Shown one piece after another: positions 2 to 60,187 of a stretch of DNA of 64,000 nt (positions are counted from its first letter, which is position 1; each line of letters begins with the position of its first letter). Both the position numbers and the translations under genes were made by a program. Origin of the DNA: a virus; the IMG/VR virus record IMGVR_UViG_3300047476_000779, positions 6,263 through 70,262 of that record. One strand, written 5' to 3'. A model generated the notes under the pieces. That model was not told where the DNA came from. It searched no databases and saw only the letters and a program-made list of their open reading frames with translations.

Positions 2-271
2 TTAGTTGACAAGCACAATATCACATTGAATCTGACAGAACCTGTTATTGAATATCTAGCAGAACAAGGTTACGACAAAAAGATGGGTGCTAGACCATTA
101 GCACGTAAGATTGATGAACTTATTCGAGTTCCATTGTCTAAGAAAATTCTTTTTGAACGTATCAAAAACGCTACGATTACTGCGGTAGTTGGTTCAGATG
201 GTATTGAATTTAACGTACTACAAGCGCAGACTGCAAGGGTGAATGACGATGGGATTATTGAAATCAGTTGA
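2..271 (+). CDS. clpA: ClpA/ClpB-family AAA+ chaperone, C-terminal fragment (5' end outside window)
   Basis: The frame is open from position 2. The translation ...LVDKHNITLNLTEPVIEYLAEQGYDKKMGARPLARKIDELIRVPLSKKILFERIKN matches the ClpA/ClpB D2 small-domain signature (GYDxxMGARPL+R.I). Confidence 0.8.
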   Translation, partial: LVDKHNITLNLTEPVIEYLAEQGYDKKMGARPLARKIDELIRVPLSKKILFERIKNATITAVVGSDGIEFNVLQAQTARVNDDGIIEIS

Positions 272-24286: not shown

Positions 24287-24288
24287 TC

Positions 24289-26765: not shown

Positions 26766-26805
26766 AATTTGGTAAATAGATATAGCGGTCTCGGCGTCAT
26801 CCCGC

Positions 26806-26834: not shown

Positions 26835-26850
26835 TAACATAGGAGAAAAT

Positions 26851-27351: not shown

Positions 27352-27545
27352 ACAAACTAACATATGATGAATGGCTTGAAAAATGCGGTGGGAAGTTGAA
27401 AGATAATCAATTTCAGACCGCGCAAGAAATGATATCCGATTTTCAGAAATTTCACAGACTATCTTTACAAGACGAAATTGATATGATAAATCAATCAGAA
27501 TATCAGTTATATCTACAGCGAGTTGATGCAGGAGTTGAAGAATGA
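27348..27545 (+). CDS. hypothetical protein
   Basis: 65-aa ORF. Confidence 0.4.
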   Translation: MNKLTYDEWLEKCGGKLKDNQFQTAQEMISDFQKFHRLSLQDEIDMINQSEYQLYLQRVDAGVEE

Positions 27546-28717: not shown

Positions 28718-29562
28718 GTCAAATAAAAATTTCAGAATTATTCTATTCAATTCAAGGTGAAGGTAAATTCATGGGAGTCCCGAGTGTGTTTTTACGCACG
28801 TTCGGGTGTAACTTTGAATGTAATGGCTTTGGGTTGTCTAAAGGTGAAAAGAGTACAGAGAGAGATACAATTGCGATTAAAGCAGAAACTTATACAGATT
28901 ATAAATCCTTACCGCTTGTCAGCACGGGATGTGATAGTTATGCATCTTGGGACCCTCGTTTCAAACATCTTAGTCCTGTGCTCGATTCCGATACTATTGC
29001 TAACAGCATTGTTGATACACTTCCTCGAGGTCGTTGGATGGATGAGCACTTGGTTATCACGGGCGGCGAACCGCTTCTCGGATGGCAAAGAGCGTATCCT
29101 GACTTACTTTCGCACGATAAGATGAAATCATTGAAGGAGATGACGTTTGAGACAAACGGCACTCAACATATAAGTGAGGACTTCACTAAGTATCTACGTG
29201 AATGGCAACGTAATCGTGCTAAAGATGCGATTACATTCAGTGTAAGTCCTAAACTCAGTATCAGCGGTGAAAAGTGGGAAGATGCTATCTGTCCCGAAGT
29301 TATCGCACAATACAAGGTTCATGGTTTCGTATATCTCAAATTTGTTGTAGCAACTAAAGAAGATGTGAAAGAAGCTGAACAAGCAGTAGATGAGTATCGC
29401 AAGAAAGGTTTTACTGGTCCTGTATACTTGATGCCATGCGGTGGCGTTGAATCTATCTATAGTTTGAATGCACGTAACGTAGCAATTGAAGCGATGAACC
29501 GAGGTTGGCGCTATAGTGATAGACTACAAGTGCCGTTGTTTAAGAATGAATGGGGTACATGA
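28714..29562 (+). CDS. queE: 7-carboxy-7-deazaguanine synthase (QueE, radical SAM)
   Basis: FYSIQGEGKFMGVPSVFLRTFGCNFEC and HLVITGGEPLL parallel E. coli QueE (FQTLQGEGYFTGVPAIFIRLQGC ... VVITGGEP). ATG 28714 overlaps the upstream stop. Confidence 0.8.
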   Translation: MSQIKISELFYSIQGEGKFMGVPSVFLRTFGCNFECNGFGLSKGEKSTERDTIAIKAETYTDYKSLPLVSTGCDSYASWDPRFKHLSPVLDSDTIANSIVDTLPRGRWMDEHLVITGGEPLLGWQRAYPDLLSHDKMKSLKEMTFETNGTQHISEDFTKYLREWQRNRAKDAITFSVSPKLSISGEKWEDAICPEVIAQYKVHGFVYLKFVVATKEDVKEAEQAVDEYRKKGFTGPVYLMPCGGVESIYSLNARNVAIEAMNRGWRYSDRLQVPLFKNEWGT

Positions 29563-29747
29563 TGACACAAGTAGTAATTACACGAACACAATATGAACGA
29601 CTACGTGAAGTATTTGAAATGTACGACAGCGTAGATCGTATAGTTTGGAAGCAGGAATCAGTAAGTGGGATTGGTCCTAATGTTACTATTGAGTTTGATC
29701 CAAAAGAAACAGTCAAATTAGATATCACTGATGTGGAGAGTTGGTAA
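29550..29747 (+). CDS. hypothetical protein
   Basis: 65-aa ORF. Confidence 0.35.
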   Translation: MGYMMTQVVITRTQYERLREVFEMYDSVDRIVWKQESVSGIGPNVTIEFDPKETVKLDITDVESW

Positions 29748-29974
29748 TGGAAGACGGACCTCAAACATATGATCCATTCAAGCATAGATGTATTGGCACT
29801 GAATACAAGTTTACTTGGTTACCGCAGACGTGCCACATCACCGGAAAAAAGTTGTGGCTAAAACATGCGTATAGACAAACAGCAATGATTGTGGGCCCTG
29901 GAGACTCTATATTTGATTTTCGATGGTACCAAAAGGATGCGTTCTTGATAGCAAGATTAAAAGGTATAGTATGA
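29741..29974 (+). CDS. hypothetical protein
   Basis: 77-aa ORF. Confidence 0.35.
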   Translation: MVMEDGPQTYDPFKHRCIGTEYKFTWLPQTCHITGKKLWLKHAYRQTAMIVGPGDSIFDFRWYQKDAFLIARLKGIV

Positions 29975-31323
29975 AATTGTATAGTAAACGAATCGCATTT
30001 TTAATCAGTGACCAGCATTTTATTCCGCATGGTGGCATCGGTAGTTTCTGTAAGAGTTTTACAGAAATGTCTAGTAGACTAAACTGGAAAGTTGATATTA
30101 TACTTGACAAAGCTCCAAACAATGACAGGTTTAAAGATTTAATTGAAGAAGCTGGTGCCAATATCATATGGCCTTTAGAACCACTGCGATACAACAATCA
30201 CACCGCAACATTTGCGTTTAGTGACACTATCAACTTTGAAAAGATTATCAACTTCCGTACAGCATTGTTGGAAGCATTTGAAGAAAATGTATACGACATG
30301 ATTGTGTGTAACACACAAGAAGCAATGACAGCGGCATATGCTATGACAGTCAACAAGTATATTCCTGTTGTGTTCTATACACATTTACATTCAATGATTT
30401 TCCGCGACAGTCAAGGTAGCGATGTGTTTTTAGACAGTTATCATAACTTCTATAACAAGCACATGGAATTCACTGATATCATCATTGGTACACAGAGTCA
30501 AAAGAACATCGATGAATTAACAAAATACGGAGCAACTAATTGTCAGTTGCTTCCCATGCCCATGAGCGAACGCGGGTTGCTCACTGAGAGTGGATTGACT
30601 AGTAAAGGCGTATTATTCATCGGCCGCTGGGAAGAAGGCAAGAACCCAGAAGCATACATTCGTGCTATGAAAGAATGCCAGTTGCCCTGTAAAGTAATGA
30701 CTAATAGTAACGGTGCTAAGAAATTTGAGAAGGCATTTGCTGAGGCAGGTATCACTGACTACGAAATTCGTGCAGGCATTACCGGACAAGAGAAAGTAAA
30801 TTTCATTCATAGTGCTAGCGTGTTCTTTATGCCCAGCTTGCGTGAGAACTATCCTTTCGCATTCTTAGAATGCTTGGGTCATATGCCTTGCGTAGTTTTA
30901 GATTCACAAGATTGGTCAGACAACTTTGATAGCAAGTATTTTCACAAAGTCAATATCAAAGATGCCGGTAACAAAATCAAAGAACTGTATGGGTCAGCGC
31001 AAGTCAATGGTGCGTTAGACTATGTAAAACAACTTGACTATCAGGTAGCTTTCAAATGGAATAAGTTCTTAGATGATTTTGTAGGGAAACGTAGTAATAC
31101 TAATGCCGCTAAGATTAACACATTTGAAACAGTCAAGTATCGTGACTATATTAAAGATTTAGAGCGAAAACATCTAGCACGTGAAGATTTTGAATCTGTG
31201 CTATCAAACAAATATAAGTTTACTACTGTTTGGTACACTGATACAGATACCTATCTTAGCAAAGATCCAACTTATAAACCAGTAGAGGAAGAAACAGGAT
31301 TGAGCCTGTTCGAGGGACTATGA
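29971..31323 (+). CDS. GT-B fold glycosyltransferase (GT4-like)
   Basis: ATG 29971 overlaps the upstream stop. C-terminal FIGRWEEGKNPE ... PSLRENYPFAFLECLG resembles the GT-B donor-binding region. Confidence 0.5.
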   Translation: MKLYSKRIAFLISDQHFIPHGGIGSFCKSFTEMSSRLNWKVDIILDKAPNNDRFKDLIEEAGANIIWPLEPLRYNNHTATFAFSDTINFEKIINFRTALLEAFEENVYDMIVCNTQEAMTAAYAMTVNKYIPVVFYTHLHSMIFRDSQGSDVFLDSYHNFYNKHMEFTDIIIGTQSQKNIDELTKYGATNCQLLPMPMSERGLLTESGLTSKGVLFIGRWEEGKNPEAYIRAMKECQLPCKVMTNSNGAKKFEKAFAEAGITDYEIRAGITGQEKVNFIHSASVFFMPSLRENYPFAFLECLGHMPCVVLDSQDWSDNFDSKYFHKVNIKDAGNKIKELYGSAQVNGALDYVKQLDYQVAFKWNKFLDDFVGKRSNTNAAKINTFETVKYRDYIKDLERKHLAREDFESVLSNKYKFTTVWYTDTDTYLSKDPTYKPVEEETGLSLFEGL

Positions 31324-32144
31324 AAAAAATCTTAATTACAGGAAACAGCGGATACATCGGTAGTCATTTGACTAAGATGTTAAAAGATGAATATATTATT
31401 CATGGCATGGATATGAATCAACCACAGATTCAACCAGTTACTCATCATTATAATGACATTCGCAAGCCTATTGATATAGCAGAAGAATATGATTGTGTCA
31501 TTCATTTGGCTGCTTTAGTTAATGTAGGTGAAAGTGAACAGATCCCTATTCAATACTACATTACTAATTTAAATGGTACAATGAATGTATTGAACAAGAT
31601 CAAGACTAAGAATTTTGTCTTTGCGAGTACAGGTGCCGCAGTAGGTTGTGAAAGTGCTTATGGTATTAGTAAACGTGCCGCCGAAGATGTAGTATGTGAA
31701 TATTGTACCGCGCACAATCCAAAAGACTATACAATCTTTAGGTTCTACAATGTGATTGGTAGTGATGGATTCGCTCCAACTAATCCCGATGGATTAATGT
31801 ATAACTTATTGAAAGCTAAAGAATCAGGTGAGTTTACTATCTTTGGTAAAGACTATGATGTAAGTCCTGACGGAACATGTATTCGTGATTATGTTCACGT
31901 AAATGAGATTTGTGATGCTTTAAAGCAAGCGATTGAAAAGCCAAGTTACAAGGTAGAATCATTGGGACATGGTGTAGGTTATACTGTTCGTGAGATTGTT
32001 AGTATGTTTCAGAACGTAAATGATACAGACTTTGATGTAAAATACGGCCCAAGAAGAAAGGGCGACCTTGCTAGTAGTGTACTAGAAGATGTGTCGCCCT
32101 ATATGCGTAACTTGTATACGATGGAACAGTTGTTAAAAGTTTAA
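31320..32144 (+). CDS. NAD-dependent sugar epimerase/dehydratase (extended SDR)
   Basis: ILITGNSGYIGSHL is a Rossmann GxxGxxG. YGISK is the catalytic YxxxK. Confidence 0.7.
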   Translation: MKKILITGNSGYIGSHLTKMLKDEYIIHGMDMNQPQIQPVTHHYNDIRKPIDIAEEYDCVIHLAALVNVGESEQIPIQYYITNLNGTMNVLNKIKTKNFVFASTGAAVGCESAYGISKRAAEDVVCEYCTAHNPKDYTIFRFYNVIGSDGFAPTNPDGLMYNLLKAKESGEFTIFGKDYDVSPDGTCIRDYVHVNEICDALKQAIEKPSYKVESLGHGVGYTVREIVSMFQNVNDTDFDVKYGPRRKGDLASSVLEDVSPYMRNLYTMEQLLKV

Positions 32145-34330: not shown

Positions 34331-35365
34331 ATGCACTCTTTCAATCTTACTACTAAACGTATCGGTTTTGCTTGTAAATTCGCTGAAATTAACAAGAAAG
34401 GCGAGATTTCGTCAGTCGAAGGTCTTAACACCGGCGGCACAACTATGGCATGGGCAAAGCGCAACACCCGCGCCGCAGTAGAAGAAAAAATCATTGATGT
34501 TGCTAAGACCAACATCGTAAACACACACAATCTTATTAAGAAGGTGGCAACTCTTCCCGAGCCACAACGCATGTTGCGCATTACTAGTGACATGCTTAGT
34601 TTTTATACACACGAAGACTGGCAACCCTTCTGGCAATCTACTAATACTCAGGATTCACTCGCACGTTGGTTCGCTCCTCTAGGTGAGACTGCTAGACAAA
34701 ACAACGTTCGCTTGTCATTTCACCCTGACCAATTCGTGGTTCTTGCTAGTGACCGCGAAGATGTAGTAAATAAGAGTATCGAGGAATTCGAGTATCATTG
34801 TGACATGGCTCGCTGGTTAGGGTACGGTAAGACTTTTCAGGACATGAAGGTCAACGTTCATATCAGTGGTCGTCAAGGTCCCGAAGGTATTCGCAAGGCG
34901 TATCAGCGTCTAAGTCCCGAAGCACGTAACACTATCACTATCGAGAACGAAGAAAATGCCTGGGGACTTGACGATTGCCTTACTTTATCTGATTTGCTTC
35001 CAATTGTTTTGGACATTCATCATCATTGGTGCAGAGAGGGAGAATACTTGGCAATCACCGACGAGCGTGTTCAGCGGGTTGTTGATTCTTGGCGCCATGT
35101 TCGCCCTACTCTACATTATAGTGTGTCACGTGAAGATATCCTTGTTGGTCATTGCGTTAATACTTTACCATGCCGCGACAGCTTGATTGCCCAAAAAATC
35201 AACAAGCAAAAGCTACGTGCTCATAGTGACTACTTTTGGAACAACGCAGTTAATGACTGGGCATTGACATACGTAGATAAATTTGATATCATGTGCGAGT
35301 CTAAGGGCAAGAATCTTGCTAGCACACCATTATACGAGAAAGCGAAACAAAATGGGATTATTTGA
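34331..35365 (+). CDS. uvdE: UV damage endonuclease (UvdE)-like
   Basis: IGFACKF, VRLSFHPDQFVVL, ITIENEE and VLDIHHHW match conserved UVDE TIM-barrel blocks. Confidence 0.65.
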   Translation: MHSFNLTTKRIGFACKFAEINKKGEISSVEGLNTGGTTMAWAKRNTRAAVEEKIIDVAKTNIVNTHNLIKKVATLPEPQRMLRITSDMLSFYTHEDWQPFWQSTNTQDSLARWFAPLGETARQNNVRLSFHPDQFVVLASDREDVVNKSIEEFEYHCDMARWLGYGKTFQDMKVNVHISGRQGPEGIRKAYQRLSPEARNTITIENEENAWGLDDCLTLSDLLPIVLDIHHHWCREGEYLAITDERVQRVVDSWRHVRPTLHYSVSREDILVGHCVNTLPCRDSLIAQKINKQKLRAHSDYFWNNAVNDWALTYVDKFDIMCESKGKNLASTPLYEKAKQNGII

Positions 35366-47037: not shown

Positions 47038-47835
47038 ATGAATCGTTTTCTGAAACTCTCTTTTGTCGTTGCCGCTGTCGCACTGACTAGCGCATGTACC
47101 CGTATCGAGACCGGTGAAGTTGGTCTTCGCCGAGATATTAATAAACAGGTCAGTACTCAAGAACTGTTGCCCGGTTCTTGGAATCAAACATTGATCGGTG
47201 AGGTTATGACTTTCCCTGTCAAGGACGTTAACGTCAAGTTGGATGACATGACTCCCCTTGCGAAAGACAATAGCACAATGAAAGATTTTGATGCTGTGGT
47301 TATCTATAACTTGAATCAGGCACAGGTCGCGGAGTTGTATAACAGTAAGAGCCGAGCGTTCCACGTTGAACACAAGGGCGACACTTATCTGATGTATAAC
47401 TATGTTATGCAAATCGCACGTAATAGCATTTACAAAGCCGCACGTGATTACGAAGCATTGGACATGGCAGACAATCGCCAACCAATTGAGACTAAGGTTA
47501 AGGAACTGATGCAAAAAGCATTGGCAGAAGAAAAATTAGACGGAGCATTGTCTATTACTCAAGTTCTTGTTCGTAACGTTGTTCCGGCTGACAGTGTTGT
47601 TCAAAGTGCCAACGACTTGGTTCGTAGTAAGAATGAATTGAAACAGAAAGAAGTTGAAGTTAAGACTGCCGAAGCAGAAGCCCGTCGAATGGCAGCATTG
47701 GCTAATAACAGTGCTAGTTCTATCGCATTCATGAATGCTCAGGCCGCACTGAATATCAGTGAAGGTATTAAGAACGGTAAGGTTCAGACTATCGTTGTTC
47801 CTAGCAACATGACATCGTTGATGTTGCCTAAGTGA
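47038..47835 (+). CDS. lipoprotein, possibly SPFH/band-7-like
   Basis: Lipobox LTSAC after the signal peptide MNRFLKLSFVVAAVA. Long coiled C-terminus. Confidence 0.45.
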   Translation: MNRFLKLSFVVAAVALTSACTRIETGEVGLRRDINKQVSTQELLPGSWNQTLIGEVMTFPVKDVNVKLDDMTPLAKDNSTMKDFDAVVIYNLNQAQVAELYNSKSRAFHVEHKGDTYLMYNYVMQIARNSIYKAARDYEALDMADNRQPIETKVKELMQKALAEEKLDGALSITQVLVRNVVPADSVVQSANDLVRSKNELKQKEVEVKTAEAEARRMAALANNSASSIAFMNAQAALNISEGIKNGKVQTIVVPSNMTSLMLPK

Positions 47836-50309: not shown

Positions 50310-52007
50310 ATGTTCAAAAAAATTGTAAATCTACCTAATTTAACACTGTTAGTGGCGCTGTCATTGAGCACAGTAGCCGCATATTACAGTATCATTGGAT
50401 TAACCGCTATCTTTGCAGGTGCGGTTATTCCTGTCATCATCATGGGGTCTATGCTAGAAGTAGCAAAGATCACTACAACAGTGTGGCTACGTAAGTACTG
50501 GAATAAATGTAGCTGGGTACTCAAGTTATATCTAGTTCCTGCTGTAGTAGCACTAGCATTACTAACCTCTATGGGTATCTTTGGATTCTTATCTAAAGCT
50601 CACATGGATCAAGGAATCACCTCAGGTGATGTACAAGCAAAGCTATCGCTATATGATGAAAAAATCAAGACTCAACGTGATAACATTGAATTGGCGCGTA
50701 AGGCACTTCAACAGATGGATGCTCAGGTCGATCAGCGACTTTCACGTTCTGATAGTGAGCAGGCTGCTGAACGTGCTGTTCAAATTCGTAGACAACAAGC
50801 AGGTGAACGTACTAAGTTACAAAAAGAAATAGGTGAGGCACAGAAAGAGATACAAAAACTCAACGAAGAACGTGCTCCTATCGCTGCAGAGAATCGTAAA
50901 GTAGAAGCCGAGGTTGGTCCTGTCAAATACATTGCCGCATTGATTTACGGAGATAACGCAGATACAAACATGCTTGAGGCTGCTGTACGCTGGGTTATTA
51001 TTTTACTTGTTGTTGTTTTTGACCCATTAGCTATCGCATTAGTATTAGCGGGTAATCAAAGTAAAGAATGGCTGTTAGAAAATACCGAAGATGATAAAGA
51101 ATCCGAGAATTCTGTTACTGATAAACTGATTGCCCGTGGTATTGATGCCGATGAAGAAGAAAGACTAGTAAGAGAAGCAAACGAAAAGATTGCCGAAATC
51201 GAACCTGAAGTTAACGAGCCTATAATCAATGTACCTATGAAATTCGTAGACTTAGGGGAACACCCTAAGGATCACGATGAAAAATCTCTAGAGGAACCTA
51301 TTATCGAAGAACAACTACCCGAACCAGATGTAGTTGTCAAAGAACAGGAGAAGTCGATATTAGAACAACATCCCTATCTCACTACAGGTTTCTCACATTT
51401 TCAAAATCTAGAGCCAATGGTTTATAAACCAGAAACTGAACCAGAATCCCTAGAAGAAGATGTAGCTGTTGTTAATGAAGAAACAGTTCCGGAAGAAATA
51501 GTAGACGAAGAACCTAAAGTAGAAATTCTAGCAGTGGGAATCGATCCAGTCGAACGCCCAGGTGATTACCTAACAGCAGACTCCACTGAGATAATGACAG
51601 AAGGTGTCACGCAAGAAAATCCGATCACATTACTAGAAAGTGGATATGTAATGTATGACGGTAAGCAAATGACCAGAGAAGTCATGAAGGATATGCATCC
51701 AGAACTCTTTAGGTTAAGACCTGATTTGGGTAGAAAAGTAGATACTAACTTTGGTTCTAAATTTCCTGAGTATGCCCAAAAAGGAGATGTCTTTGTGCGA
51801 GTTGACGCATTGCCCAATCGTGTATACAAATTTGATGGCAAACGATGGATCGAGGTGAACAAGGACCGTTCAGACTCATACCTTCATGACCAAAAGTACA
51901 TAGAATATCTAGTGGAAATGATAGACAAAGGTGAGTACGATGTTGAACTATTGTCCGATCATGAACGAGACCAGATTTCGGAATTCCTAAACAAGAAAAA
52001 ACATTGA
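50310..52007 (+). CDS. multi-pass membrane protein with long coiled-coil/acidic periplasmic or cytoplasmic region
   Basis: Three to four N-terminal TM helices, then a coiled coil (QAKLSLYDEKIKTQRDNIELARKALQQMDAQ...) and an acidic segment. Confidence 0.5.
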   Translation: MFKKIVNLPNLTLLVALSLSTVAAYYSIIGLTAIFAGAVIPVIIMGSMLEVAKITTTVWLRKYWNKCSWVLKLYLVPAVVALALLTSMGIFGFLSKAHMDQGITSGDVQAKLSLYDEKIKTQRDNIELARKALQQMDAQVDQRLSRSDSEQAAERAVQIRRQQAGERTKLQKEIGEAQKEIQKLNEERAPIAAENRKVEAEVGPVKYIAALIYGDNADTNMLEAAVRWVIILLVVVFDPLAIALVLAGNQSKEWLLENTEDDKESENSVTDKLIARGIDADEEERLVREANEKIAEIEPEVNEPIINVPMKFVDLGEHPKDHDEKSLEEPIIEEQLPEPDVVVKEQEKSILEQHPYLTTGFSHFQNLEPMVYKPETEPESLEEDVAVVNEETVPEEIVDEEPKVEILAVGIDPVERPGDYLTADSTEIMTEGVTQENPITLLESGYVMYDGKQMTREVMKDMHPELFRLRPDLGRKVDTNFGSKFPEYAQKGDVFVRVDALPNRVYKFDGKRWIEVNKDRSDSYLHDQKYIEYLVEMIDKGEYDVELLSDHERDQISEFLNKKKH

Positions 52008-52032
52008 CAATAATACCCCAATATGTTATACT
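52004..52032 (+). promoter_or_regulatory. sigma70-like promoter TTGACA-17-TATACT
   Basis: -35 at 52004-52009, -10 at 52027-52032. Upstream of the lipoprotein gene. Confidence 0.6.
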
Positions 52033-52061
52033 ATATTCATTGTAACTTATTGGGGATTTTT

Positions 52062-52697
52062 ATGAAACTCGCTGTTATTGTTGTAGCTTTGTCATTGTCG
52101 GTAGTTGGATGTTCAACTACTAAACGAGGTGAGGGTGAACTTGATAGTATTCGCACACAGAAACTATCGACCTCTTTCCGTGAAGACACAATCCGTATCG
52201 AAACTGACTGTCGCTGGTACACTCTTGACAAAAGCAATTGTGAAATTATCTCAATTGAATCTGTCGCTACTGCTAGCGCAAACGGCAACACAGAAAGCAA
52301 CCGTCGCACTGCGTTAATTCGAGCAGGCGATAAGGCACGTGCTCAGGTTCGTCACTTCATTCAGGAAGATGTGTCTAGCTCTCGGGTGTCAACTACACTG
52401 GCTAAAAACGTTGAGAAGGCAAACGACCGTCTCAAATCACGTACAAATGTAGGTGAGATTGTCGCTATGTCAGATACTGACGCAAGCAAAGACACTAACT
52501 TTTCTATCCGCGAAAACTCAAACGATACTGCCTACAACTTACAAGAAACTATTCGTGTGAATGCTAGTGGTATTCTGCGTGGCTTCAAAGTTGTAAAACA
52601 AGAAGTCGTAGGCGCACAAGAAGTATCAGTAACTATCCGTTGGGACAAAGAATCTGAACGATTCTCTAATCAATTGCGTAAAAAATTCGGTAGCTAA
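52062..52697 (+). CDS. lipoprotein
   Basis: MKLAVIVVALSLSVVGCS lipobox. ATG 52062. Confidence 0.5.
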   Translation: MKLAVIVVALSLSVVGCSTTKRGEGELDSIRTQKLSTSFREDTIRIETDCRWYTLDKSNCEIISIESVATASANGNTESNRRTALIRAGDKARAQVRHFIQEDVSSSRVSTTLAKNVEKANDRLKSRTNVGEIVAMSDTDASKDTNFSIRENSNDTAYNLQETIRVNASGILRGFKVVKQEVVGAQEVSVTIRWDKESERFSNQLRKKFGS

Positions 52698-52699
52698 TC

Positions 52700-53692
52700 A
52701 TGCGCTGGATCGTTTTGGTCTGTGCTATTCTAGCCGGCTGTGCTAGTACCTCAAAACCTAACTACATTAGAGCTACGGGTACTGGCACCACACTAGAAGA
52801 AGCCAAACAAATCGCATTTCGTGATGCCATTGAATATCAGATAGGTACAATGGTATTGAGTGAACGAGAATCATCAAAACATGATTTAATCAAGAATCAA
52901 ATTCTTGTTCATAGCGCAGGCTACGTGGACGACTTTAAAATAATTAATACCATCAAAAGCAACGGACAAACCACAGTAACTATGGATGTACTGGTTGCTA
53001 GTAGCAAGATTGATAATCAGATATTGTCATCTGGTAAATCTAGTAATAACTTTGACGGTAACAGACACGATGCCCAATACTCAACACTAGTCAAAGAGAG
53101 AATTCAAGGTGACTTGATATTGGATAATTTCCTGAGAGGATATCCTACTAAAGCGTACAAGATCAAACAACAAAAGTATACCGTTTCAGTAGATAATTAC
53201 AGAAATTTAGTATTAAACGTACCGTATGAACTATCTTGGAACTTTGAATACATCAAATCATTAAGATCGTTATTGGATACTATTGAAGATGGTAGTAATG
53301 GTATATTAAAGCATTCTCCCGGCAACGTGACGATCATGGCAAAGGATCCCAAAGATTTTGTTTTAGGTGAGAGAACTATTCATAGATTCAATGACATTTC
53401 ACGTGTAAACAAAATACAACAAGGAATGACCAATAGTAGTGAACTGCGGTTAAAGCTGACGATTACTGACTATGGTAACAATAGATTGTTTTCACGATGC
53501 TGGGCACCGGCAAGTATATCTGGGTACGGGTCTTTCTATGCTATTGGGTCAGTGACTGATATTAGAATCTACGGCAATCATAAAGAAAAGCAGGTAATAA
53601 ACTTTACAGTGCCGAGTAACCTAACTAGTATGATTAATAGGTTTTCTAGTGTAGAATTGAACGTAGTTGCTGAACGTGACTGTCAAAAATAA
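52700..53692 (+). CDS. lipoprotein (LPP20-like N-terminal region?)
   Basis: MRWIVLVCAILAGCAS lipobox. Confidence 0.5.
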   Translation: MRWIVLVCAILAGCASTSKPNYIRATGTGTTLEEAKQIAFRDAIEYQIGTMVLSERESSKHDLIKNQILVHSAGYVDDFKIINTIKSNGQTTVTMDVLVASSKIDNQILSSGKSSNNFDGNRHDAQYSTLVKERIQGDLILDNFLRGYPTKAYKIKQQKYTVSVDNYRNLVLNVPYELSWNFEYIKSLRSLLDTIEDGSNGILKHSPGNVTIMAKDPKDFVLGERTIHRFNDISRVNKIQQGMTNSSELRLKLTITDYGNNRLFSRCWAPASISGYGSFYAIGSVTDIRIYGNHKEKQVINFTVPSNLTSMINRFSSVELNVVAERDCQK

Positions 53693-53722: not shown

Positions 53723-54925
53723 ATGTCAACTGATGGAAAACTAACTCACTGTTCCTTTTGTGGAAATCACAAAGATATCGTTAAAAAATTGATCGTAGGC
53801 GACGATGTGGCTATTTGTAGCGACTGTATTGAACTATGTACTCAATTGATTGTAGACGATTCTTCCGTAGAATCAGAAGTAAAAAAAGATATAGGTCATT
53901 ATGACCCGTCATCTATCAAAGAATTCTTAGACTTACATGTGATTGGTCAAGACTCGGCCAAATCAGTATTAAGTGTAGCTATTGCTAATCACTATAAACG
54001 TATAACATACCCACCGAAAGACTTAGAAATAAGTAAGGGCAATGTATTAATCATTGGGCCAACTGGATCGGGAAAGACTCTGTTGGCAAAAACTGTAGCG
54101 AAGTACTTGGGTGTACCCTTTGTTGTTACTGATGCTACTAGCTTAACCGAAGCGGGCTATGTAGGTGATGATGTCGAATCCATGATTAGCATGTTAGTAA
54201 ATGCGGCAGGTGGAGACAAAGACCTAGCAGAACGCGGTATTGTATTCATTGACGAAATCGATAAGATTGCTAGAAAAGGTGAATCATCAAGTATCACCCG
54301 TGATGTGTCCGGTGAAGGTGTACAGCAAGCACTACTCAAGTTAGTCGAGGGTACAACTTGTCGCATTCCCGCCGGTGGTGGTAGAAAGCATCCCGGTGGC
54401 GATATGCTAGAAATCAACACAAAGAATATATTGTTTATTGCCGGTGGCGCATTCGTGGGTGTGAAGGATATCATTAACAGTCGAACTAATGGTACAAGTA
54501 TTGGTTTTTCAGCTACGATTAAAGACAAAACACACCAGTTTAGTTTAAGTAATGTTAGCCCTGATGATTTGACTAAATTCGGTATGATTCCTGAATTTAT
54601 CGGTAGATTCACTACTACAGTTAGTATCGAGGATTTGACAAAAGAGCAATTAGTTAAGGTTCTTACTGGAGTTAAGAATAACTATATTGACCAATATAAG
54701 TATTTGTTTAGCATCGATGGTATTGACCTTGAATTTGATAACGTTGCTCTGGAGCAAATAGCTGAGAACTGTTTGAAACTCAAAACCGGAGCACGTGGAC
54801 TGCATACCGAAATTGAGCGTGTATTAATGCCACACATGTTCAACACTAAAAAATATCGTGAAAATAATATAACAAAGATAAATATTAATCAGGAGCAGAT
54901 TTTAAATCCAAAAGCTATTATATGA
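53723..54925 (+). CDS. clpX: ClpX-like AAA+ unfoldase
   Basis: N-terminal C4 zinc-binding domain CSFCGN...CSDCIELC. Walker A GPTGSGKTLLAKTVAKYLGVPF. Walker B VFIDEIDKI. Confidence 0.9.
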   Translation: MSTDGKLTHCSFCGNHKDIVKKLIVGDDVAICSDCIELCTQLIVDDSSVESEVKKDIGHYDPSSIKEFLDLHVIGQDSAKSVLSVAIANHYKRITYPPKDLEISKGNVLIIGPTGSGKTLLAKTVAKYLGVPFVVTDATSLTEAGYVGDDVESMISMLVNAAGGDKDLAERGIVFIDEIDKIARKGESSSITRDVSGEGVQQALLKLVEGTTCRIPAGGGRKHPGGDMLEINTKNILFIAGGAFVGVKDIINSRTNGTSIGFSATIKDKTHQFSLSNVSPDDLTKFGMIPEFIGRFTTTVSIEDLTKEQLVKVLTGVKNNYIDQYKYLFSIDGIDLEFDNVALEQIAENCLKLKTGARGLHTEIERVLMPHMFNTKKYRENNITKININQEQILNPKAII

Positions 54926-55140
54926 AAAAGGGAAGACGAGTTATTGTACAAGACGGCAACGTAGAGAAAGCGTTGCGTAAATTTAAAAAGAAGATTGCGG
55001 ATACGGATCTTCTTCAAGAGGTTCGTGACCGTCAACAATTTATCAAACCTACAATTAAACGTAAAATAGCAAAAAGTCAAGCGAAACGTAGGTGGCAAAA
55101 ATATCTACGTGACCAAAGTTTGCCTAAGAAACTGTTCTAA
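54922..55140 (+). CDS. rpsU: ribosomal protein bS21 homologue
   Basis: VQDGNVEKALRKFKKKIADTDLLQEVRDRQQFIKPTIKRKIAKSQAKRRWQKY matches the S21 family. ATGA overlap with the clpX stop. Confidence 0.85.
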   Translation: MKKGRRVIVQDGNVEKALRKFKKKIADTDLLQEVRDRQQFIKPTIKRKIAKSQAKRRWQKYLRDQSLPKKLF

Positions 55141-55244
55141 CCAAAATATTAGATTTTTTTGCGTATTTTTTATAAAATAAATACGTATTCAGATGCCGAT
55201 GGTCGGGTCTGAAAATGTCATCTTGCTTAATAAAGGAGAAAAAT

Positions 55245-55682
55245 ATGACAAAAACTTTATCCCTTCGTTCCCTCGACATTCCGTCAATTCACAAATTTGG
55301 TATCGGTTTCGATAACATGTTTGACGAACTAATGCGAATGAATAGTCAACAATCCCTAAACTATCCCCCATATAACATCGTCAAGAATACCGAAGATTCC
55401 TTCGATATTCAAGTAGCTGTTTCTGGATTTGGTGAAGGTGAAATCGAAGTCAATCTTGACAATCGAGTATTGACTATCAAAGGTCAAAAGAAGGAAGACC
55501 TAGTTGCTGAGTATCTACACAAGGGTATCAGTACACGTGATTTTGTGCGTGAGTTTACTCTTGCCGAACACGTTGAGGTTATCAATGCTTCACAGAAGGA
55601 CGGTATTCTAACTATTAATTTAGAGCGTATTGTTCCGGAAGAAAAGAAGCCAAAAGCTATTGCTATTAGTTACACTAAATAA
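55245..55682 (+). CDS. small heat-shock protein (Hsp20/IbpA family)
   Basis: Alpha-crystallin domain blocks: DIQVAVSGFGEGEIEVNLDNRVLTIKGQKK ... REFTLAEHVEVINASQKDGILTINLER. RBS AAAGGAGAAAAAT. Confidence 0.85.
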   Translation: MTKTLSLRSLDIPSIHKFGIGFDNMFDELMRMNSQQSLNYPPYNIVKNTEDSFDIQVAVSGFGEGEIEVNLDNRVLTIKGQKKEDLVAEYLHKGISTRDFVREFTLAEHVEVINASQKDGILTINLERIVPEEKKPKAIAISYTK

Positions 55683-55691
55683 TATAATAGC

Positions 55692-55722
55692 AGTGAGTAG
55701 TCGAAAGGCTACTCACTTTCTT
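55692..55722 (+). terminator. rho-independent terminator
   Basis: agtgagtag-tcgaaagg-ctactcact stem with a GAAA loop, then ttctt. Confidence 0.6.
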
Positions 55723-55741
55723 AATTCACTTGGATAATAAC

Positions 55742-56047
55742 ATGCCCAAAACAGAAACAAAAATTAAAATTAAACCTAATCTTGCTTTACAAGAACCACC
55801 GTTGTACAAGATTATCTACATGAATGACAATGTAACCAGCATGGAATTTGTTATCCATAGTCTAATTGATTATTTTGATTACACGGCTGATACTGCCACT
55901 ACTATTACACAGAACATCCACAATGATGGGAGCGCAATTGTAGCAGTGCTACCTTATGAAATTGCCGAACAAAAGGGAATTGAAGTCACACTAGATGCTA
56001 GAACTCAGGGCTACCCGCTTCAAGTAAAAATTGAAGCTGAGAGTTAA
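55742..56047 (+). CDS. clpS: ClpS-like N-end-rule adaptor
   Basis: YKIIYMNDNVTSMEFVIHSLIDYF ... AIVAVLPYEIAEQKG matches the ClpS core (VIL.NDD.T.MEFV..VL...F). Confidence 0.7.
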   Translation: MPKTETKIKIKPNLALQEPPLYKIIYMNDNVTSMEFVIHSLIDYFDYTADTATTITQNIHNDGSAIVAVLPYEIAEQKGIEVTLDARTQGYPLQVKIEAES

Positions 56048-56742
56048 CCTCTGACTTCTATTCTTTTTGCCCAGTAAGGTTCTCTTTTATAATGGGCATT
56101 ATTAATGTAGTTGATATCATTTATATTGGTATCAACTACTTTTCCATATGATCCATAAATCCAATGCGACACTTTCTTTTCAGTGTCTACTATAAGTGCG
56201 AGATTTAACGGAAGTTGTGCGTGTAGTGATTGAGGTTCCTCGTGAAAAAACAAGTCTACACAAGGAACGCTATTTGTTATGATTACTACCTTCTTAACAT
56301 CTAAGTGTCGCTGAAGTTTTTCTAAGGTAGATTTTAAATATACTATATCTTCATGTCGATGTTGTTCCATCATTTCATCTGTTATTGAATCTGTTGGCTC
56401 CATGTTACCATACCAACCGTTACTCCCTAACAATGCGATTCCGTCAATGATGACAACGTTGTGATGTAAGAACGCTACATTCTTTATAGTACGAGTGAGT
56501 TTTATTAATTCATCAGTCTTGCGGTCTATGTTGTGGGAATCTCTGTACTCTAGAGACCCCGCAACATAAAACACTCCTTGATAATATCTAGCCAAATGAG
56601 TTAACACTTGTCTAATAGTCTTTGTGTCGTGACTGATGTTTCCAGCAACAAGACAATATAGACTAGTGGCCTTCCCCTCCCAATTGAACGCTTCACCCGG
56701 TTCTAGGTTAAGGTCACTGATTATATCAAAACCGATGTTCAT
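56044..56742 (-). CDS. calcineurin-like metallophosphoesterase
   Basis: DIISDLNLEPGE (DxH-like), CLVAGNISHD (GN(H)D/E) and further His-rich blocks. Confidence 0.5.
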   Translation of the reverse strand: MNIGFDIISDLNLEPGEAFNWEGKATSLYCLVAGNISHDTKTIRQVLTHLARYYQGVFYVAGSLEYRDSHNIDRKTDELIKLTRTIKNVAFLHHNVVIIDGIALLGSNGWYGNMEPTDSITDEMMEQHRHEDIVYLKSTLEKLQRHLDVKKVVIITNSVPCVDLFFHEEPQSLHAQLPLNLALIVDTEKKVSHWIYGSYGKVVDTNINDINYINNAHYKREPYWAKRIEVRG

Positions 56743-56746
56743 CAGA

Positions 56747-57064
56747 TTATTTTGCTACTCTGATGTTGGCTTTTTTCGGGGCTTTGGTAGTTTTTGCCGC
56801 TGCCTTTGGTTTAGCCTTCATTGCTGCCTTTGGCTTAGCCTTAGGTTTAGCTTTTGGTTTTTCGGCTTCAACTGCCACCGCCGGAGCTTCTGCTACAGTT
56901 TCCTGTACAGGAGCAACTGGAGCTTCTGCGACTGGGACAATCGCTGGGGTATCTACCTTATAAGGTGCGGATTCTTCTACTACTGTTTCTTCCTTTTTGC
57001 GGAAGAAGATGTAATATACAGCTCCTGCTGCAACTAATAAGGCAATTGCTAATTCTAGCGTCAT
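56747..57064 (-). CDS. membrane-anchored Ala/Pro-rich protein with KPKAKPKA basic repeat tail
   Basis: N-terminal TM helix LELAIALLVAAGAVYYIFF, then an AP-rich linker and EKPKAKPKAKPKAAMKAKPKAAAK. The DNA has an 18-bp direct repeat at 56801-56818 and 56824-56841. Confidence 0.5.
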   Translation of the reverse strand: MTLELAIALLVAAGAVYYIFFRKKEETVVEESAPYKVDTPAIVPVAEAPVAPVQETVAEAPAVAVEAEKPKAKPKAKPKAAMKAKPKAAAKTTKAPKKANIRVAK

Positions 57065-57156
57065 TTTTTTCTCCTAAAATTATATTTAGACAAGAAAAAA
57101 CCGTTTCGTTTTTTATATAGTCATAGTTTGCGCAATTCACAGTCAGTAAATACGTC

Positions 57157-57648
57157 ATGTTCAGAAAAACATCACTAGCAGAGATTATGCGTGAGGACTT
57201 ACCTCCCATAGCCTACCAAAAGCGTCTTTGCTATAGGACCGACCGTGATGAAGTCGTAAGGTTGTATAGGATGCTGAACAAACAGATTTTCAACAATAAA
57301 TTGATTATGCCTGAGATTGAAGTCATGGGCCGTTGTCGAAAATACTGGGGCATGTGCTACGGATCAACGACAATGCCCACTAAGACTAAAAGCTATTGTA
57401 AAATACGCATGATGGACAAATGGTATTGTCGTCAGTGGTTAGTGATAGTTTTAGCGCATGAAATGTGCCATCAATATCAATGGGACGTTCAGGGGTTAAA
57501 GAGACTCAATGAGGGAAAAGAGCCTATTATGAGTCATGGACCTAGCTTCTTTGTGTTTAGGGATAAACTAAAGAAACTAGGTATTCCATTAAAGAGCGCA
57601 CATAGTAGAAAACGCTGGTTCTTACATCAAAACGTTTTCAAGTGCTAA
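57157..57648 (+). CDS. SprT-like zinc metalloprotease
   Basis: LAHEMCHQYQW is an HExxH motif in a SprT-like context (...KYWGMCY...). Confidence 0.55.
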   Translation: MFRKTSLAEIMREDLPPIAYQKRLCYRTDRDEVVRLYRMLNKQIFNNKLIMPEIEVMGRCRKYWGMCYGSTTMPTKTKSYCKIRMMDKWYCRQWLVIVLAHEMCHQYQWDVQGLKRLNEGKEPIMSHGPSFFVFRDKLKKLGIPLKSAHSRKRWFLHQNVFKC

Positions 57649-58752
57649 TTATTTGATATTTGGATTCTTGACTACGTTACCGAACTGGTCAACAAGAATA
57701 ACATCCTTAGTACCCTTTTTACCGATACCACGAGATAATGTGACACCCAATGGACGAATACCTGCGATGCCCAATGAACCACCGTTACGTGTACTATCAT
57801 TGCGTAGTAACCAGACCATCATGTGACTTTCTGGGATCTCAGCGGCATTAGTAATAACTGCGTGACAATTAACAGTTATATTGTTTTCTTTCTGTGTGAA
57901 ATGTTCAGGTTTGAATGTCTGAACAACTACACCGCCTTTAGGATTCAAGTCAGCACCGAAGACTGCCCCTAATGCTTCCTGTTCTGTGGGCTCCATAACA
58001 ATTTCTTTGCTTAGTTCATACACAGGAACAGTTCCGGTCTTCATCTTACGTTCACCGATTTGGTTTAGTTGAACGACACCTTTAGCTACTAGTTTATCAA
58101 GAATCGCACGGGCACGTTCACCGAACATGTTATCAGCACTTTCCCACATGTCAGCATCAAGTTTCTTAATACTGATAGGCAAGCTACCACGTTCGCTGGT
58201 CAGTACTACGTCTGCTTTCTTACGATCTGCGGTATCACGGCCAGCTACTTCAACGTTAGTTGCGTTTCTGATTGTCATTTTCTTGCCGCGAGGATCAATA
58301 AAAGTAACATTAGCAGAACCGTACTTTTGAATCACGGATTGTAAAATACTTGCCAATTCTAGTTCGTTAGCAACACCTGCGGATTGGTCACCTTGTTTTC
58401 CAGTATCTTTTACAACTACACTAACTGGACTAGCACTGAACACAATGCCACCTAAACTGCTTAATCCTGGGTCAGAACTATATTCCGGATCGGCTTCGGG
58501 TAGTTGTGCTTTAAGAACTGCTAATAATTCGTTAAGAATAGCTACACGGAACTCATTCTTTTTCTGTCCTGCTGGAATCTGTACCAAAACGTTAATCTTG
58601 TTTCCGGCAAATTTGAAATCCTCGTAACCGTTTTTACGTAAGATTTGTTCTACTTGTTGTTTGGTGACGGGTGTGGGTTGAACATCTACATTCCCCGCTT
58701 TAGGACGGGCGGCAGCTTCAACCAAAGTTCTTGTAAATTCGTAGTGTCTCAT
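57649..58752 (-). CDS. CTS-bearing hypothetical protein
   Basis: Starts [12 protein letters not shown]|A at 58752. The ORF track extends it upstream to 58842. Confidence 0.5.
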
Positions 58753-58804
58753 GTATAATCTCTCATGTATAGTATTTATCGCAATAATTTTAAAAAGGAA
58801 ACTT

Positions 58805-59395
58805 ATGAGTTTAGTACCAATTGTCATTGAACAAACAAGCAAAGGTGAGCGTAGCTACGACATTTACAGTCGATTAATGCGTGATCGGGTGATCTTACTT
58901 GAAGGCCCTGTAGGAGATCAAATGGCAAATTTGATTGTAGCACAACTTTTATTCCTTGAATCAGAAGATCCTAGCAAGGATATCAGTATGTACATCAATA
59001 GTCCGGGCGGCTCAGTATCAGCAGGATTGGCAATCTATGATACTATGCAGTTCATCAAGCCCGACGTACAGACAATTGTTATGGGTCAAGCATGTAGCAT
59101 GGGATCGTTGCTAGCACAAGCAGGTGCTCCCGGCAAACGAGTTATGTTGCCCAACGCACGACACATGATTCATCAACCTTCAGGTGGTGCTCGTGGTATG
59201 CAAAGTGACATTGAAATTTCCTATAAAGAAATCACTTACTTGAAAAAGCGACTGACCGAAATTTATGTCGAACACAATTCAAAGGGTAAGACCTATGCTG
59301 AGTTTGAGAAGGATATGGATCGTGATACATTCATGTCAGCACAGCAAGCATTGGATTACGGACTTATCGATCAGATTCTAGCTAAACGCCCATAA
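58805..59395 (+). CDS. clpP: ClpP serine protease
   Basis: [18 protein letters not shown] (Ser nucleophile GGSV), MHQPSGG and the overall ClpP layout. RBS AAAGGAAACTT. Confidence 0.9.
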
Positions 59396-59396: not shown

Positions 59397-59425
59397 TTGA
59401 CAATAAATAACCTTTCTGTTACAAT
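59397..59425 (+). promoter_or_regulatory. consensus early promoter TTGACA-17-TACAAT with embedded inverted repeat
   Basis: -35 at 59397-59402, -10 at 59420-59425. A 10-bp IR aacctttctg/cagaaaggtt at 59409-59418 and 59431-59440 spans the -10 and the SD. Confidence 0.6.
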
Positions 59426-59446: not shown

Positions 59447-60187
59447 ATGTCCAATAAATTTCTAGCAATTTTAATTTTCTGCTGTGGGTCTGTATTTGCT
59501 CAGGAAACTGACCCGTTCGGTTATCAAAAACTAAACAGTGAAGTATCGTTTAAAGTAAAGAAATTAGATGAACCTGGACCTACTGTAATTCTTATTCACG
59601 GCGGTGGTGGGGTACGAAGTATGCACAACCTCGATGTGTGGTCATACATACTGACCGGTTGGGGATACAACGCCGTCATTATTGATATGTTCTCGGGTAG
59701 GGGTTTGGGTGATCTTACGAAAAACGGTCAACGTCTTTCATTCAGAACCAGAGCTAAAGATGTAACTGAGTTGGCAAAACACATCAGTGTCCAACCGTGG
59801 CACAAAGGCGGAATCGGTACGATTGGGTTCAGTCAAGGTGGGTCTACTGTATTTGCTTTGGGCAAAGATGACGACCAAACACTTATTAAAGCTGGTATAG
59901 CGTACTACCCCGCATGTGCTTATGAGGGCCCTGCGTACACCCCTTCTATTCCCACACAAATGCATTTGGCTATGAAGGATGACTTGTCTAATCCGGCATT
60001 GTGTGGTATAAATTTTTTCTTGAAAAAGCACGATGTACACCGTTATGAAAATGCTAGTCACGTGTTTGACGTTGCCGCCGAAAAAAGAGTCACTCCCAGT
60101 GGGAACGTAATCTGGTATGATCGTGATGCCCACATGTTGTCAAACGACAGGACTAAGGCTTTTTTAGACAAATACCTAATCCAATAA
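59447..60187 (+). CDS. secreted alpha/beta hydrolase (dienelactone hydrolase-like)
   Basis: Signal peptide MSNKFLAILIFCCGSVFAQE. GFSQGGS nucleophile elbow. VILIHGGGG. Confidence 0.6.
   Translation: MSNKFLAILIFCCGSVFAQETDPFGYQKLNSEVSFKVKKLDEPGPTVILIHGGGGVRSMHNLDVWSYILTGWGYNAVIIDMFSGRGLGDLTKNGQRLSFRTRAKDVTELAKHISVQPWHKGGIGTIGFSQGGSTVFALGKDDDQTLIKAGIAYYPACAYEGPAYTPSIPTQMHLAMKDDLSNPALCGINFFLKKHDVHRYENASHVFDVAAEKRVTPSGNVIWYDRDAHMLSNDRTKAFLDKYLIQ

Follow-up and report, generated by a model that had tools for sequence, protein, structure and literature searches.

A Clp protease and chaperone gene set with a candidate ROSE-like RNA leader in an uncultivated jumbo phage related to Atu_ph07 and Phosso

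A stretch of 64,000 nucleotides of the virus record IMGVR_UViG_3300047476_000779 (positions 6,263 to 70,262; in the following "the window", in whose numbering all positions are given unless another contig is named) encodes in one block (53723-59395) the unfoldase ClpX, the ribosomal protein bS21, a small heat shock protein of the Hsp20 family (sHsp), the adaptor ClpS and the peptidase ClpP, and carries at its very beginning the 3' end of a gene for the second unfoldase, ClpA. According to the best-supported reading, to which we assign a probability of about 60%, the phage supplies its own ClpXP and ClpAPS protein quality-control system together with the sHsp and a J-protein. The authors of the Atu_ph07 paper (PMC6102473) and of the review on jumbo phages arrived at the same general reading. 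The Clp set does not represent a new kind of system, it extends a feature of Atu_ph07-like phages to an uncultivated clade of very large size. New are its tight and conserved layout and, preceding the chaperone gene, a candidate for an RNA switch of the heat-shock type.

The window encodes a T4-type DNA polymerase of family B together with RIIA and an ATP-dependent DNA ligase, and IMG/VR contains related viral contigs of up to 525 kb; the genes described here are therefore regarded as phage-encoded. The DNA polymerase is closest to those of Sinorhizobium phage Phosso (469 kb) and Agrobacterium phage Atu_ph07 (490 kb) with 46-49% identity, followed by Vibrio phage 2.275.O and then by Rak2-like phages. 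Within the Atu_ph07/Phosso (Rak2-like) group, the window represents a jumbo phage that is uncultivated. No close cultured relative was found at the DNA level, as the comparison of the block with cultured phages gave only short matches of 66-69% within clpX and clpP. Among the relatives in IMG/VR at least 578 ClpS, at least 449 ClpX and at least 204 ClpA proteins with 73-86% identity were detected.

Clp components and chaperones

The five proteins of the block had been named in a sequence-only reading of this DNA, and profile searches confirmed all of them as products of intact open reading frames (ORFs) on the plus strand (Table 1). ClpX contains the Pfam domains zf-C4_ClpX (49.6 bits, cut-off 27), AAA_2 and ClpB_D2-small, with the four cysteines of the zinc finger being kept (CSFC...CSDC), and exceeds the NCBIfam equivalog cut-offs of NF003745 (508.6 versus 359) and TIGR00382 (477.5 versus 370.75). 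In the alignment to a solved ClpX (9ndj_F) it retains the motifs GPTGSGKT, GYVG, DEIDK, GGRKHP and GARGL, the latter with the sensor-II arginine, as well as the IGF docking loop (SIGFS opposite GIGFN). The RKH and IGF loops are retained across the clade, the motif [IM]GF being present in 78 of the 87 distinct IMG/VR homologues, which share 68-82% identity with ClpX of the window and contain zero stop codons.

The start of clpP was moved to 58805 based on the comparison with relatives and the inspection of ribosome-binding sites, which revealed the sequence AAGGAA in front of this position. The protein matches the Pfam family CLP_protease with 267.6 bits and the subfamily NF001368 with 311.5 bits (cut-off 249). 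Full-length alignments with solved ClpPs showed that the N-terminal axial loop and the catalytic triad are kept, with Ser in QACSMG, His in MIHQP and Asp in DRDTF; the assignment of the catalytic serine to a motif GGSV in the sequence-only reading has to be corrected accordingly. Across 77 relatives with 71-92% identity and no stop codons, the serine motif was found in 75 and the histidine motif in 71. Together with the Walker A and B motifs, which are kept in ClpX, the triad removes the earlier reservation that the components might lack catalytic residues.

The conservation of the ClpX docking loop and of the ClpP docking pocket, which had been proposed as a check, was observed for the loop and for a part of the pocket. 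At the pocket positions (E. coli numbering) Y62, F82, I90, M92 and L114 are kept, and S and V are found at positions 60 and 112. The two changes (Y60S and F112V) were considered as a sign of orthogonality and rejected, since both positions vary among solved bacterial ClpPs and F112 is freely variable within the clade.

The PHROG families matched by ClpP are labelled as head maturation protease, the RefSeq record of Atu_ph07 annotates its ClpP as 'head maturation protease', and Iyer et al. 2021 suggested that ClpA and ClpX may aid assembly. ClpP might hence act as prohead maturation protease, with ClpX and ClpA as chaperones in the assembly or unfolding of structural proteins. Such a role in virion assembly is highly improbable, as the NCBIfam head maturation model reaches a score of 104 and remains below its cut-off of 120, whereas the ClpP subfamily cut-off is clearly exceeded. 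Furthermore, ClpP resembles cellular ClpP with 61-66% identity among the matches listed and keeps the axial loop, and its gene is not located among structural genes.

For ClpS (Pfam ClpS, 82.9 bits, cut-off 23; matches to ClpS in the PDB with E = 2.6e-14) the ATG at 55742 was identified as the likely start by the same comparison and inspection as for clpP. In the alignment to ClpS of E. coli and Caulobacter the residues N34, D35, T38, M40 and H66 of the N-degron pocket are kept and D36 is replaced by N. The residues E79 and K84, which contact the N-domain of ClpA, are kept as well (YEIAEQK opposite AEVAETK), and about 20 residues precede the core. The 88 relatives examined share 67-86% identity and show no stop codons.

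The NCBIfam model ClpA was the top match for the fragment at the window start, which belongs to the Clp/Hsp100 ATPases. Two metagenome contigs (L003 and L004, JGI), which were reached via the neighbouring 243-aa protein, overlap the window start, with 0 mismatches in the first 242 bases and 1 or 2 over the next 7.8-8.8 kb. The full ClpA derived from L003 comprises 754 aa and is encoded directly after the gene of a DnaJ-like protein with a J-domain including HPD and DnaJ_C, the zinc finger being absent; both lie just outside the window. This ClpA is colinear with residues 5-734 of E. coli ClpA (605 bits) and contains the Pfam domains Clp_N, AAA, AAA_lid_9, AAA_2 and ClpB_D2-small. Since ClpB models match in two separate pieces, the middle domain of ClpB appears to be absent, as expected for ClpA, and the fragment can be assigned to a true ClpA. 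According to the alignment with E. coli ClpA both nucleotide sites and GYVG are kept. The docking loop contains IGF in place of the IGL of E. coli (LNIGFGSQ opposite KSIGLIHQ), with NIGFG in 65 of 80 relatives, and in the N-domain E28, T81 and R86 are kept while E23 is replaced by Q.

The sequence-only reading had added this C-terminus to the Clp module of the block. Its identification as ClpA stands, but the gene lies outside the cluster, about 53 kb away from clpX, and is paired with dnaJ instead of clpS. The DnaJ gene precedes ClpA in all 74 loci with enough upstream DNA. Where large contigs of relatives carry both ClpA and the ClpX block, the two are 54-70 kb apart, similar to the window.

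The bS21 protein exceeds the cut-offs of Pfam (57.6 versus 27 bits) and TIGR00030 (55 versus 28.95). Since its ATG overlaps the stop codon of clpX, both genes are probably translationally coupled. Hsp20 matches the Pfam family HSP20 (67.2 bits, cut-off 20.8) and has a C-terminal IAI opposite IEI of IbpA. With 113.8 bits against the cut-off of 212 of the IbpA equivalog it can be classified as an sHsp related to IbpA, and not as an orthologue by the NCBI criterion; its identity is 39% to E. coli IbpA and 39% to Hsp20 of Atu_ph07. The residues corresponding to Y34, R93 and R97 of IbpA are kept in the alignment to E. coli IbpA.

Gene order, origin and comparison with known systems

The fetched loci of relatives were searched with the window proteins. 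Among 91 distinct loci, 52 are informative in that they include the start of ClpX followed by 9 kb or more of downstream DNA. In all 52 loci the genes encoding ClpX, Hsp20, ClpS and ClpP follow each other in this order on one strand within 4.9-9.3 kb (median 6.1 kb), and bS21 is located directly 3' of clpX in 41 of them. Given that none of these 52 distinct loci deviates in order or strand, the clustering is not due to chance. Zero stop codons were detected in ClpX, S21, ClpS and ClpP of the relatives, and ClpX, ClpA, ClpS and ClpP occur together on the same large contigs.

The best GTDB matches of ClpP originate from Beta- and Gammaproteobacteria and are 61-66% identical among the matches listed. 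Just downstream of clpP the listed bacterial loci carry clpX in 75 of 80 cases. In the phage the bacterial layouts clpP-clpX and clpS-clpA are lost, clpX being located upstream of clpP and separated from it.

Neighbour-joining trees (Kimura distance, 100 bootstraps) were calculated from the sequences of the window, IMG/VR, Atu_ph07 and Phosso together with 26 proteobacteria including a member of the Rhizobiaceae. The split between phages and bacteria was supported by 98/100 bootstraps for ClpP and by 100/100 for ClpX. The phylogenetic comparison proposed in the sequence-only reading thus places the phage copies, as far as ClpP and ClpX are concerned, apart from the sampled proteobacteria. Since the copies of both proteins are separated in this way, the trees indicate one old capture followed by vertical descent from the common ancestor of the Atu_ph07-like phages. 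The set appears to be old, vertically inherited and tightly arranged, and is a good target for the question why giant phages need a protein turnover of their own.

ClpS shares 32% identity with ClpS of Atu_ph07, and S21 is without detectable similarity to S21 of Phosso (L001, 20693-20959). Both may have been replaced or acquired separately within the group.

The intactness of the genes and their own clade also bear on the idea that they represent inert cargo, that is, recently captured host genes drifting to loss, which the sequence-only reading itself had raised in the form of recent host-derived pseudogenes. Apart from the fact that ClpS, ClpA, Hsp20 and DnaJ stay under some NCBIfam equivalog cut-offs, the observations contradict it: the ORFs are intact, the motifs are kept, ClpX, ClpS and ClpP are free of stop codons in 77-88 divergent homologues, the synteny is invariant, the phage copies form a clade of their own and no bacterial ClpP with more than 66% identity was found among the matches listed. 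We consider this explanation effectively refuted.

The combination of unfoldases, peptidase, adaptor and sHsp had been called unusual in the sequence-only reading. The phage-borne Clp system is real, but the same set has been published for Atu_ph07 (2018) and for Sinorhizobium phage AP-J-162 (2024). Attai et al. 2018 (PMC6102473) described seven Clp-family genes in Atu_ph07, among them ClpX (gp2), ClpA (gp292) beside DnaJ (gp293), ClpB, ClpP and ClpS, and proposed that the Clp genes help the host to withstand the stress that infection causes. Iyer et al. 2021 reviewed ClpP, ClpS, ClpA, ClpX, Hsp20, DnaJ and SprT in jumbo phages, including Hsp20 in Atu_ph07, which is also annotated in the record of this phage. 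Six Clp ORFs were reported for AP-J-162 (PMC11242549, 2024), with ClpX beside IF-3, Hsp20, DnaJ and S21, and in the study of Chen et al. 2022 on 900 phages encoding bS21 the commonest neighbours of this gene included Hsp20 (n=127) as well as Clp proteases of two families (n=50 and 47).

The phage of the window thus has ClpX, ClpA next to DnaJ, ClpP, ClpS, Hsp20 and S21 in common with Atu_ph07, Phosso and AP-J-162, and shares with Atu_ph07 and Phosso the order ClpX, translation factor, Hsp20, ClpS and ClpP as well as the grouping of ClpP and ClpX in the trees. In Atu_ph07 ClpX, IF-3, Hsp20, thymidine kinase, ClpS and, further on, ClpP span about 29 kb including the record origin, and in Phosso the block covers about 119 kb, in contrast to 5.7 kb here. 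The gene next to the end of clpX encodes bS21 here and IF-3 in Atu_ph07 and Phosso. Moreover, ClpB is listed for Atu_ph07, whereas none was seen in the 74 kb examined here. Among cultured phages ClpA is found in 173 and ClpP in 148 records with near-identical genus counts; the two widely co-occur in Rak2-like and PA5oct-like phages, the latter of which also have an annotated ClpS. A block of ClpX, Hsp20 and ClpS was not shown by Rak2-like and PA5oct-like phages in these searches, in which the identity to the window was 34-41%.

Compared with the ClpXP and ClpAPS systems of the E. coli type, the phage set has the same domains, catalytic triad, pore, RKH and docking loops and contacts to the ClpA N-domain, and five of the six N-degron pocket residues of ClpS. 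It differs in being encoded by a virus, in the loss of the operon layouts with clpS 53 kb away from clpA, in the IGF of ClpA and in the exchange of D36 for N in ClpS; bacterial orthologues of ClpX are about 50% identical, and for ClpP the range given above applies. An alternative is a hybrid use, in which the phage proteins, for instance ClpS or ClpX, would plug into partners of the host such as ClpAP and ClpP and the gain would consist in the dosage or the redirection of the host machine. Cross-binding is plausible given that the IGF loops and the ClpS contact residues correspond to the bacterial consensus, the identity of 61-66% between the phage ClpP and proteobacterial ClpP among the matches listed points in the same direction, and other jumbo phages carry ClpS alone or ClpA and ClpP alone. 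Taking into account, however, that the lineage keeps every partner on the same large contigs, which would be unneeded if the host sufficed, and that the phage copies have diverged together as a clade, a purely hybrid use seems quite doubtful.

Some records were set aside in the comparison. 'Phage' records with adjacent clpP and clpX (Acinetobacter phage MD-2021a, faecal 'Bacteriophage sp.' contigs and the Staphylococcus/Listeria 'Kay' records) show the bacterial operon order and were rejected as bacterial-type loci. The freshwater 'moraphage' lineage (PMC12619734) has ClpA, PhoH, DnaJ, DnaK and Hsp20 in common with the group studied here; its description contains two mentions of Clp only, one of them being ClpA, and no S21, and does not discuss ClpX, ClpP and ClpS. 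As no link to the clade of the window could be made, it was not accepted as kin. The record IMGVR_UViG_3300027749_002876 (524,565 bp; loci L113, L123, L175 and L179) carries two diverged copies of the ClpX block and of ClpA; instead of one genome of 525 kb, it may represent two related phages joined in a chimeric or concatenated assembly. In Phosso several tRNAs adjoin the clpX and S21 genes; neither tRNA nor tmRNA genes nor any Rfam family above threshold were detected within the window.

The ROSE-like leader of the Hsp20 gene

A permissive Rfam scan of the block resulted in a single match, ROSE_3 (RF02523) at 55187-55250, which covers the model from position 1 to 69 of 69. The leader sequence GAUGCCGA...GUCGGGUC does not differ from the consensus core of ROSE_3, and the last 8 nt of the leader already belong to the Hsp20 frame when this is counted from the corrected start at 55245. 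In the minimum free energy fold hairpin 1 is followed by a helix in which CUUGCU pairs with the Shine-Dalgarno sequence AGGAG leaving a bulged G, and GUCAU pairs with the AUG.

The structure is conserved, with strong covariation, among about 80 relatives. From 79 distinct upstream sequences 35 were aligned using MAFFT, and in this alignment 94.8% of the cells are paired, the values for the Shine-Dalgarno helix being 93-95%. Hairpin 1 is paired in 99% of the cells with compensatory changes in 8 of its 10 pairs and was recovered by RNAalifold unaided. None of 500 shuffles reached the observed score, and slid controls were paired to 41-49%.

ROSE_3 was furthermore the sole Rfam match in nine of twelve small loci of relatives, in each case preceding Hsp20 and with 27.7-34.2 bits, and was also detected before the Hsp20 gene of Atu_ph07 (L005, 32671-32735, minus strand; 28 bits). 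A covariance model of our own gave one match before Hsp20 in each of the 88 loci of relatives searched. The same model gave second matches before a full-length phage DnaK gene, which is not present in the window but occurs in 26 of the fetched loci. Its product comprises 628-632 aa, and the gene takes one of two positions, namely within the block, where S21 precedes and Hsp20 follows it, or 6-8 kb upstream of ClpX. One group of these relatives has an ORF for an HNH endonuclease of 270 aa (L088, 11390-12202) between S21 and the inserted DnaK gene. This neighbourhood suggests that the insertion of DnaK was helped by a homing endonuclease.

With the ROSE_3 leaders of proteobacterial ibpA and hsp genes the phage element shares the location in the 5' untranslated region (5'UTR) of an sHsp gene, the pairing of U(U/C)GCU with the Shine-Dalgarno sequence and the bulged G. 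It differs in being phage-borne, in remaining below the gathering score and in preceding the phage DnaK in some relatives as well. The three residues Y34, R93 and R97 mentioned above are required in IbpA for its self-repression via its own 5'UTR (Cheng et al. 2023, PMC10474464). ROSE-type elements in phages were not reported in any of the literature that our searches found, and the leader is the only element described here that may be new. If it works, phages would carry translational switches responding to heat or to aggregates.

Role in the infected cell and further genes of the block

We infer that the phage subunits would assemble into ClpXP and ClpAP/ClpS proteases, either alone or mixed with host subunits, with the peptidase ClpP docked onto the unfoldases ClpX and ClpA and with ClpS acting as N-degron adaptor to ClpA. 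The IbpA-like sHsp would serve as holdase for aggregating proteins, and the DnaJ-type co-chaperone and bS21 would complete the set. Together with the chaperones the proteases would keep folding and turnover running throughout the long and protein-heavy infection by a very large phage, clearing misfolded, stalled (ssrA-tagged) and N-degron proteins and recycling their amino acids. The synthesis of Hsp20 would be gated post-transcriptionally by the leader, which is predicted to hide the ribosome-binding site and the start codon and would open with heat, or when aggregates titrate the sHsp away as in the autoregulation of IbpA.

Several points weigh against this reading of a phage-supplied quality-control system. 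As ClpS, ClpA and ClpP stay under equivalog cut-offs, they have to be regarded as divergent proteins: ClpS reaches 75 bits with its best NCBIfam equivalog (cut-off 149) and is under every ClpS equivalog cut-off, ClpA matches TIGR02639, its best-matching family, in one stretch with 786.3 (cut-off 993.15), and ClpP is found only just below TIGR00493 (295.9, cut-off 308.6). The exchange D36N in ClpS recurs among the relatives, the pocket motif being readable in 57 of 88 and reading NDN in 27 and NDD in 30. The block is not one operon, with four unrelated genes, of which three have the opposite orientation, splitting clpS from clpP and with clpA 53 kb off. The trees are distance-based with limited bacterial sampling and a possible long-branch attraction of the fast-evolving phage sequences. 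The ROSE_3 match of the leader (27.7 bits, E = 0.015) does not reach the gathering score of 43, and the predicted probability that the Shine-Dalgarno sequence is unpaired is 0.24 at 20 °C and increases only to 0.36 at 50 °C; since this predicted melting is modest, thermosensing by the leader is put forward as a hypothesis. A mutual binding of the phage subunits, instead of a binding to partners of the host, is likewise put forward as a proposal. Finally, neither an experimental study of a phage Clp system nor expression data on Clp genes of jumbo phages were found in the literature.

A more far-reaching version of the quality-control reading, which we consider rather unlikely, would be a self-regulating and stress-sensing proteostasis regulon of the phage. 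The leader would have been captured together with the ibpA-like gene and later copied in front of DnaK, and a phage-only ClpXP/ClpAPS system would be coupled to bS21. If true, the phage would sense heat or the load of aggregates, switch on its own chaperones and clear the defective products of a phage-biased translation. This would be the first RNA thermometer or IbpA-type feedback and the first demonstrably autonomous AAA+ protease system in a bacteriophage.

Table 1. Features of the Clp block, its surroundings and two DnaK examples in relatives (window positions unless a contig is named)
Feature	Position	Strand	Description
ClpA 3' end	2..271	+	last 89 codons and stop of a double-ring AAA+ unfoldase
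Two putative lipoprotein genes	52023..53692	+	lipoboxes VVGC and LAGC; directly 5' of clpX
clpX	53723..54925	+	C4 zinc-finger N-domain and one AAA+ module
bS21 gene	54922..55140	+	ATG overlaps clpX stop (ATGA)
ROSE-like 5' leader	55184..55253	+	candidate RNA thermometer or IbpA-autoregulation site
Hsp20 gene	55245..55682 (ORF opens 55215)	+	IbpA-like sHsp, likely start 55245
clpS	55742..56047 (ORF opens at TTG 55730)	+	N-degron adaptor for ClpA
232-aa protein	56044..56742	-	predicted metallophosphoesterase fold; convergent with clpS, stop codons overlap (TTAA)
105-aa protein	56747..57064	-	one N-terminal hydrophobic helix; Lys/Ala/Pro-rich tail (KPKA repeat)
SprT-like zinc metalloprotease	57157..57648	+	HEMCH motif; Pfam SprT-like 32.6 bits (cut-off 25.6)
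367-aa protein	57649..58752	-	PHROG 12709; in 12/52 relatives only
clpP	58805..59395 (ORF opens 58751)	+	proteolytic subunit, 196 aa from likely start
Dienelactone-hydrolase-like protein	59447..60187	+	N-terminal signal peptide; near-consensus sigma-70 promoter 59397-59425
DnaK examples in relatives	L088 12292-14190; L030 1794-3680		ROSE-like leader copy before each

Consensus matching revealed near-consensus promoters of the sigma-70 type at 52004 (52004-52032), 59397, 60189 and 60460, and a weaker promoter-like sequence (TTGTAA-17-TATAAT) before clpP at 58731-58759. The exact T4 late promoter TATAAATA does not occur in the window, and the related motif AATAAATA is not enriched there, with 5 copies found versus about 10 expected. 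The putative lipoprotein genes upstream of clpX, for which a weak match to LPP20 was the only one obtained, are found upstream of ClpX in 34-37 of 52 relatives and probably share a transcript with clpX. Since the promoter at 52004 precedes these genes, which run into clpX, it suggests that clpX and S21 are transcribed early by the RNA polymerase of the host.

A second protease gene of the block, encoding the SprT-like protein, is present in 39 of 52 relatives; according to Iyer et al. 2021 jumbo phages of group 2.2 carry one to three copies of SprT. The sequence-only reading had suggested the degradation of defence or repressor proteins of the host, or the processing of 'CTS-tagged' proteins, as conceivable tasks. 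The Clp machines could be imagined as a targeted take-over, destroying specific defence or regulator proteins of the host or timing proteins of the phage, with ClpS and the ClpX zinc finger providing specificity and SprT possibly creating N-degrons. The presence of the ClpS adaptor, the substrate-binding N-domain of ClpX and the SprT-like protease in one block is consistent with this, as is the early expression by the host polymerase suggested by the sigma-70-type promoters around it. Iyer et al. 2021 proposed host-directed roles for ClpP, ClpS and SprT of phages, and the lambda O protein provides a precedent for the control of phage replication by ClpXP. Nevertheless, the analysis identified neither a candidate substrate nor a degron or an anti-defence partner, pockets and loops resemble those of housekeeping orthologues more than re-specialised ones, SprT is absent from 13 of 52 relatives, and the company of the sHsp, DnaJ and, in relatives, DnaK fits a general proteostasis better. 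A take-over of this kind seems unlikely, even though it has some arguments on its side, and a general quality-control function is preferred.

The gene of the 232-aa protein between clpS and clpP was detected in 52 of 52 relatives, and at least 1134 homologues exist in metagenomes. Searches of Pfam, PHROG and PDB sequences, profile search included, gave no match. Its AF2 model (pLDDT 86) resembles PptH, MPPED2, Dbr1 and Mre11 in Foldseek (E = 5e-9 to 1e-6), and its metal-binding motifs look degenerate (DLN for DxH, AGN for GD and LE for NH). A calcineurin-like metallophosphoesterase fold is predicted for this constant neighbour. The adjacent membrane-anchored 105-aa protein was not detected in the relatives by tblastn. 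The 367-aa protein contains a conserved RKKAD...LPxSxKK...WESAD, which in our reading may resemble the motif of PD-(D/E)xK nucleases.

Downstream of clpP, the gene of the dienelactone-hydrolase-like protein is nearly absent from the relatives, with one match at another position, and is probably a recently gained moron; its product also shows a weak match to a model for quorum-quenching lactonases.

Outside the block the window carries a metabolic gene cluster (14254-14850, 22140-32144 and 24503-25225) with a PP-loop ATPase and a GTP cyclohydrolase I, possibly for a base modification of the 7-deazaguanine type, as well as a cytidylyltransferase/mannose-6-P isomerase fusion, glycosyltransferases, an NAD-dependent epimerase and an FAD oxidoreductase of the DAO family. 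Further genes on the plus strand encode a UV-damage endonuclease, UvdE (34331-35365), and a protein of the SPFH/Band 7 family (47038-47835), whose members are often partners of membrane proteases.

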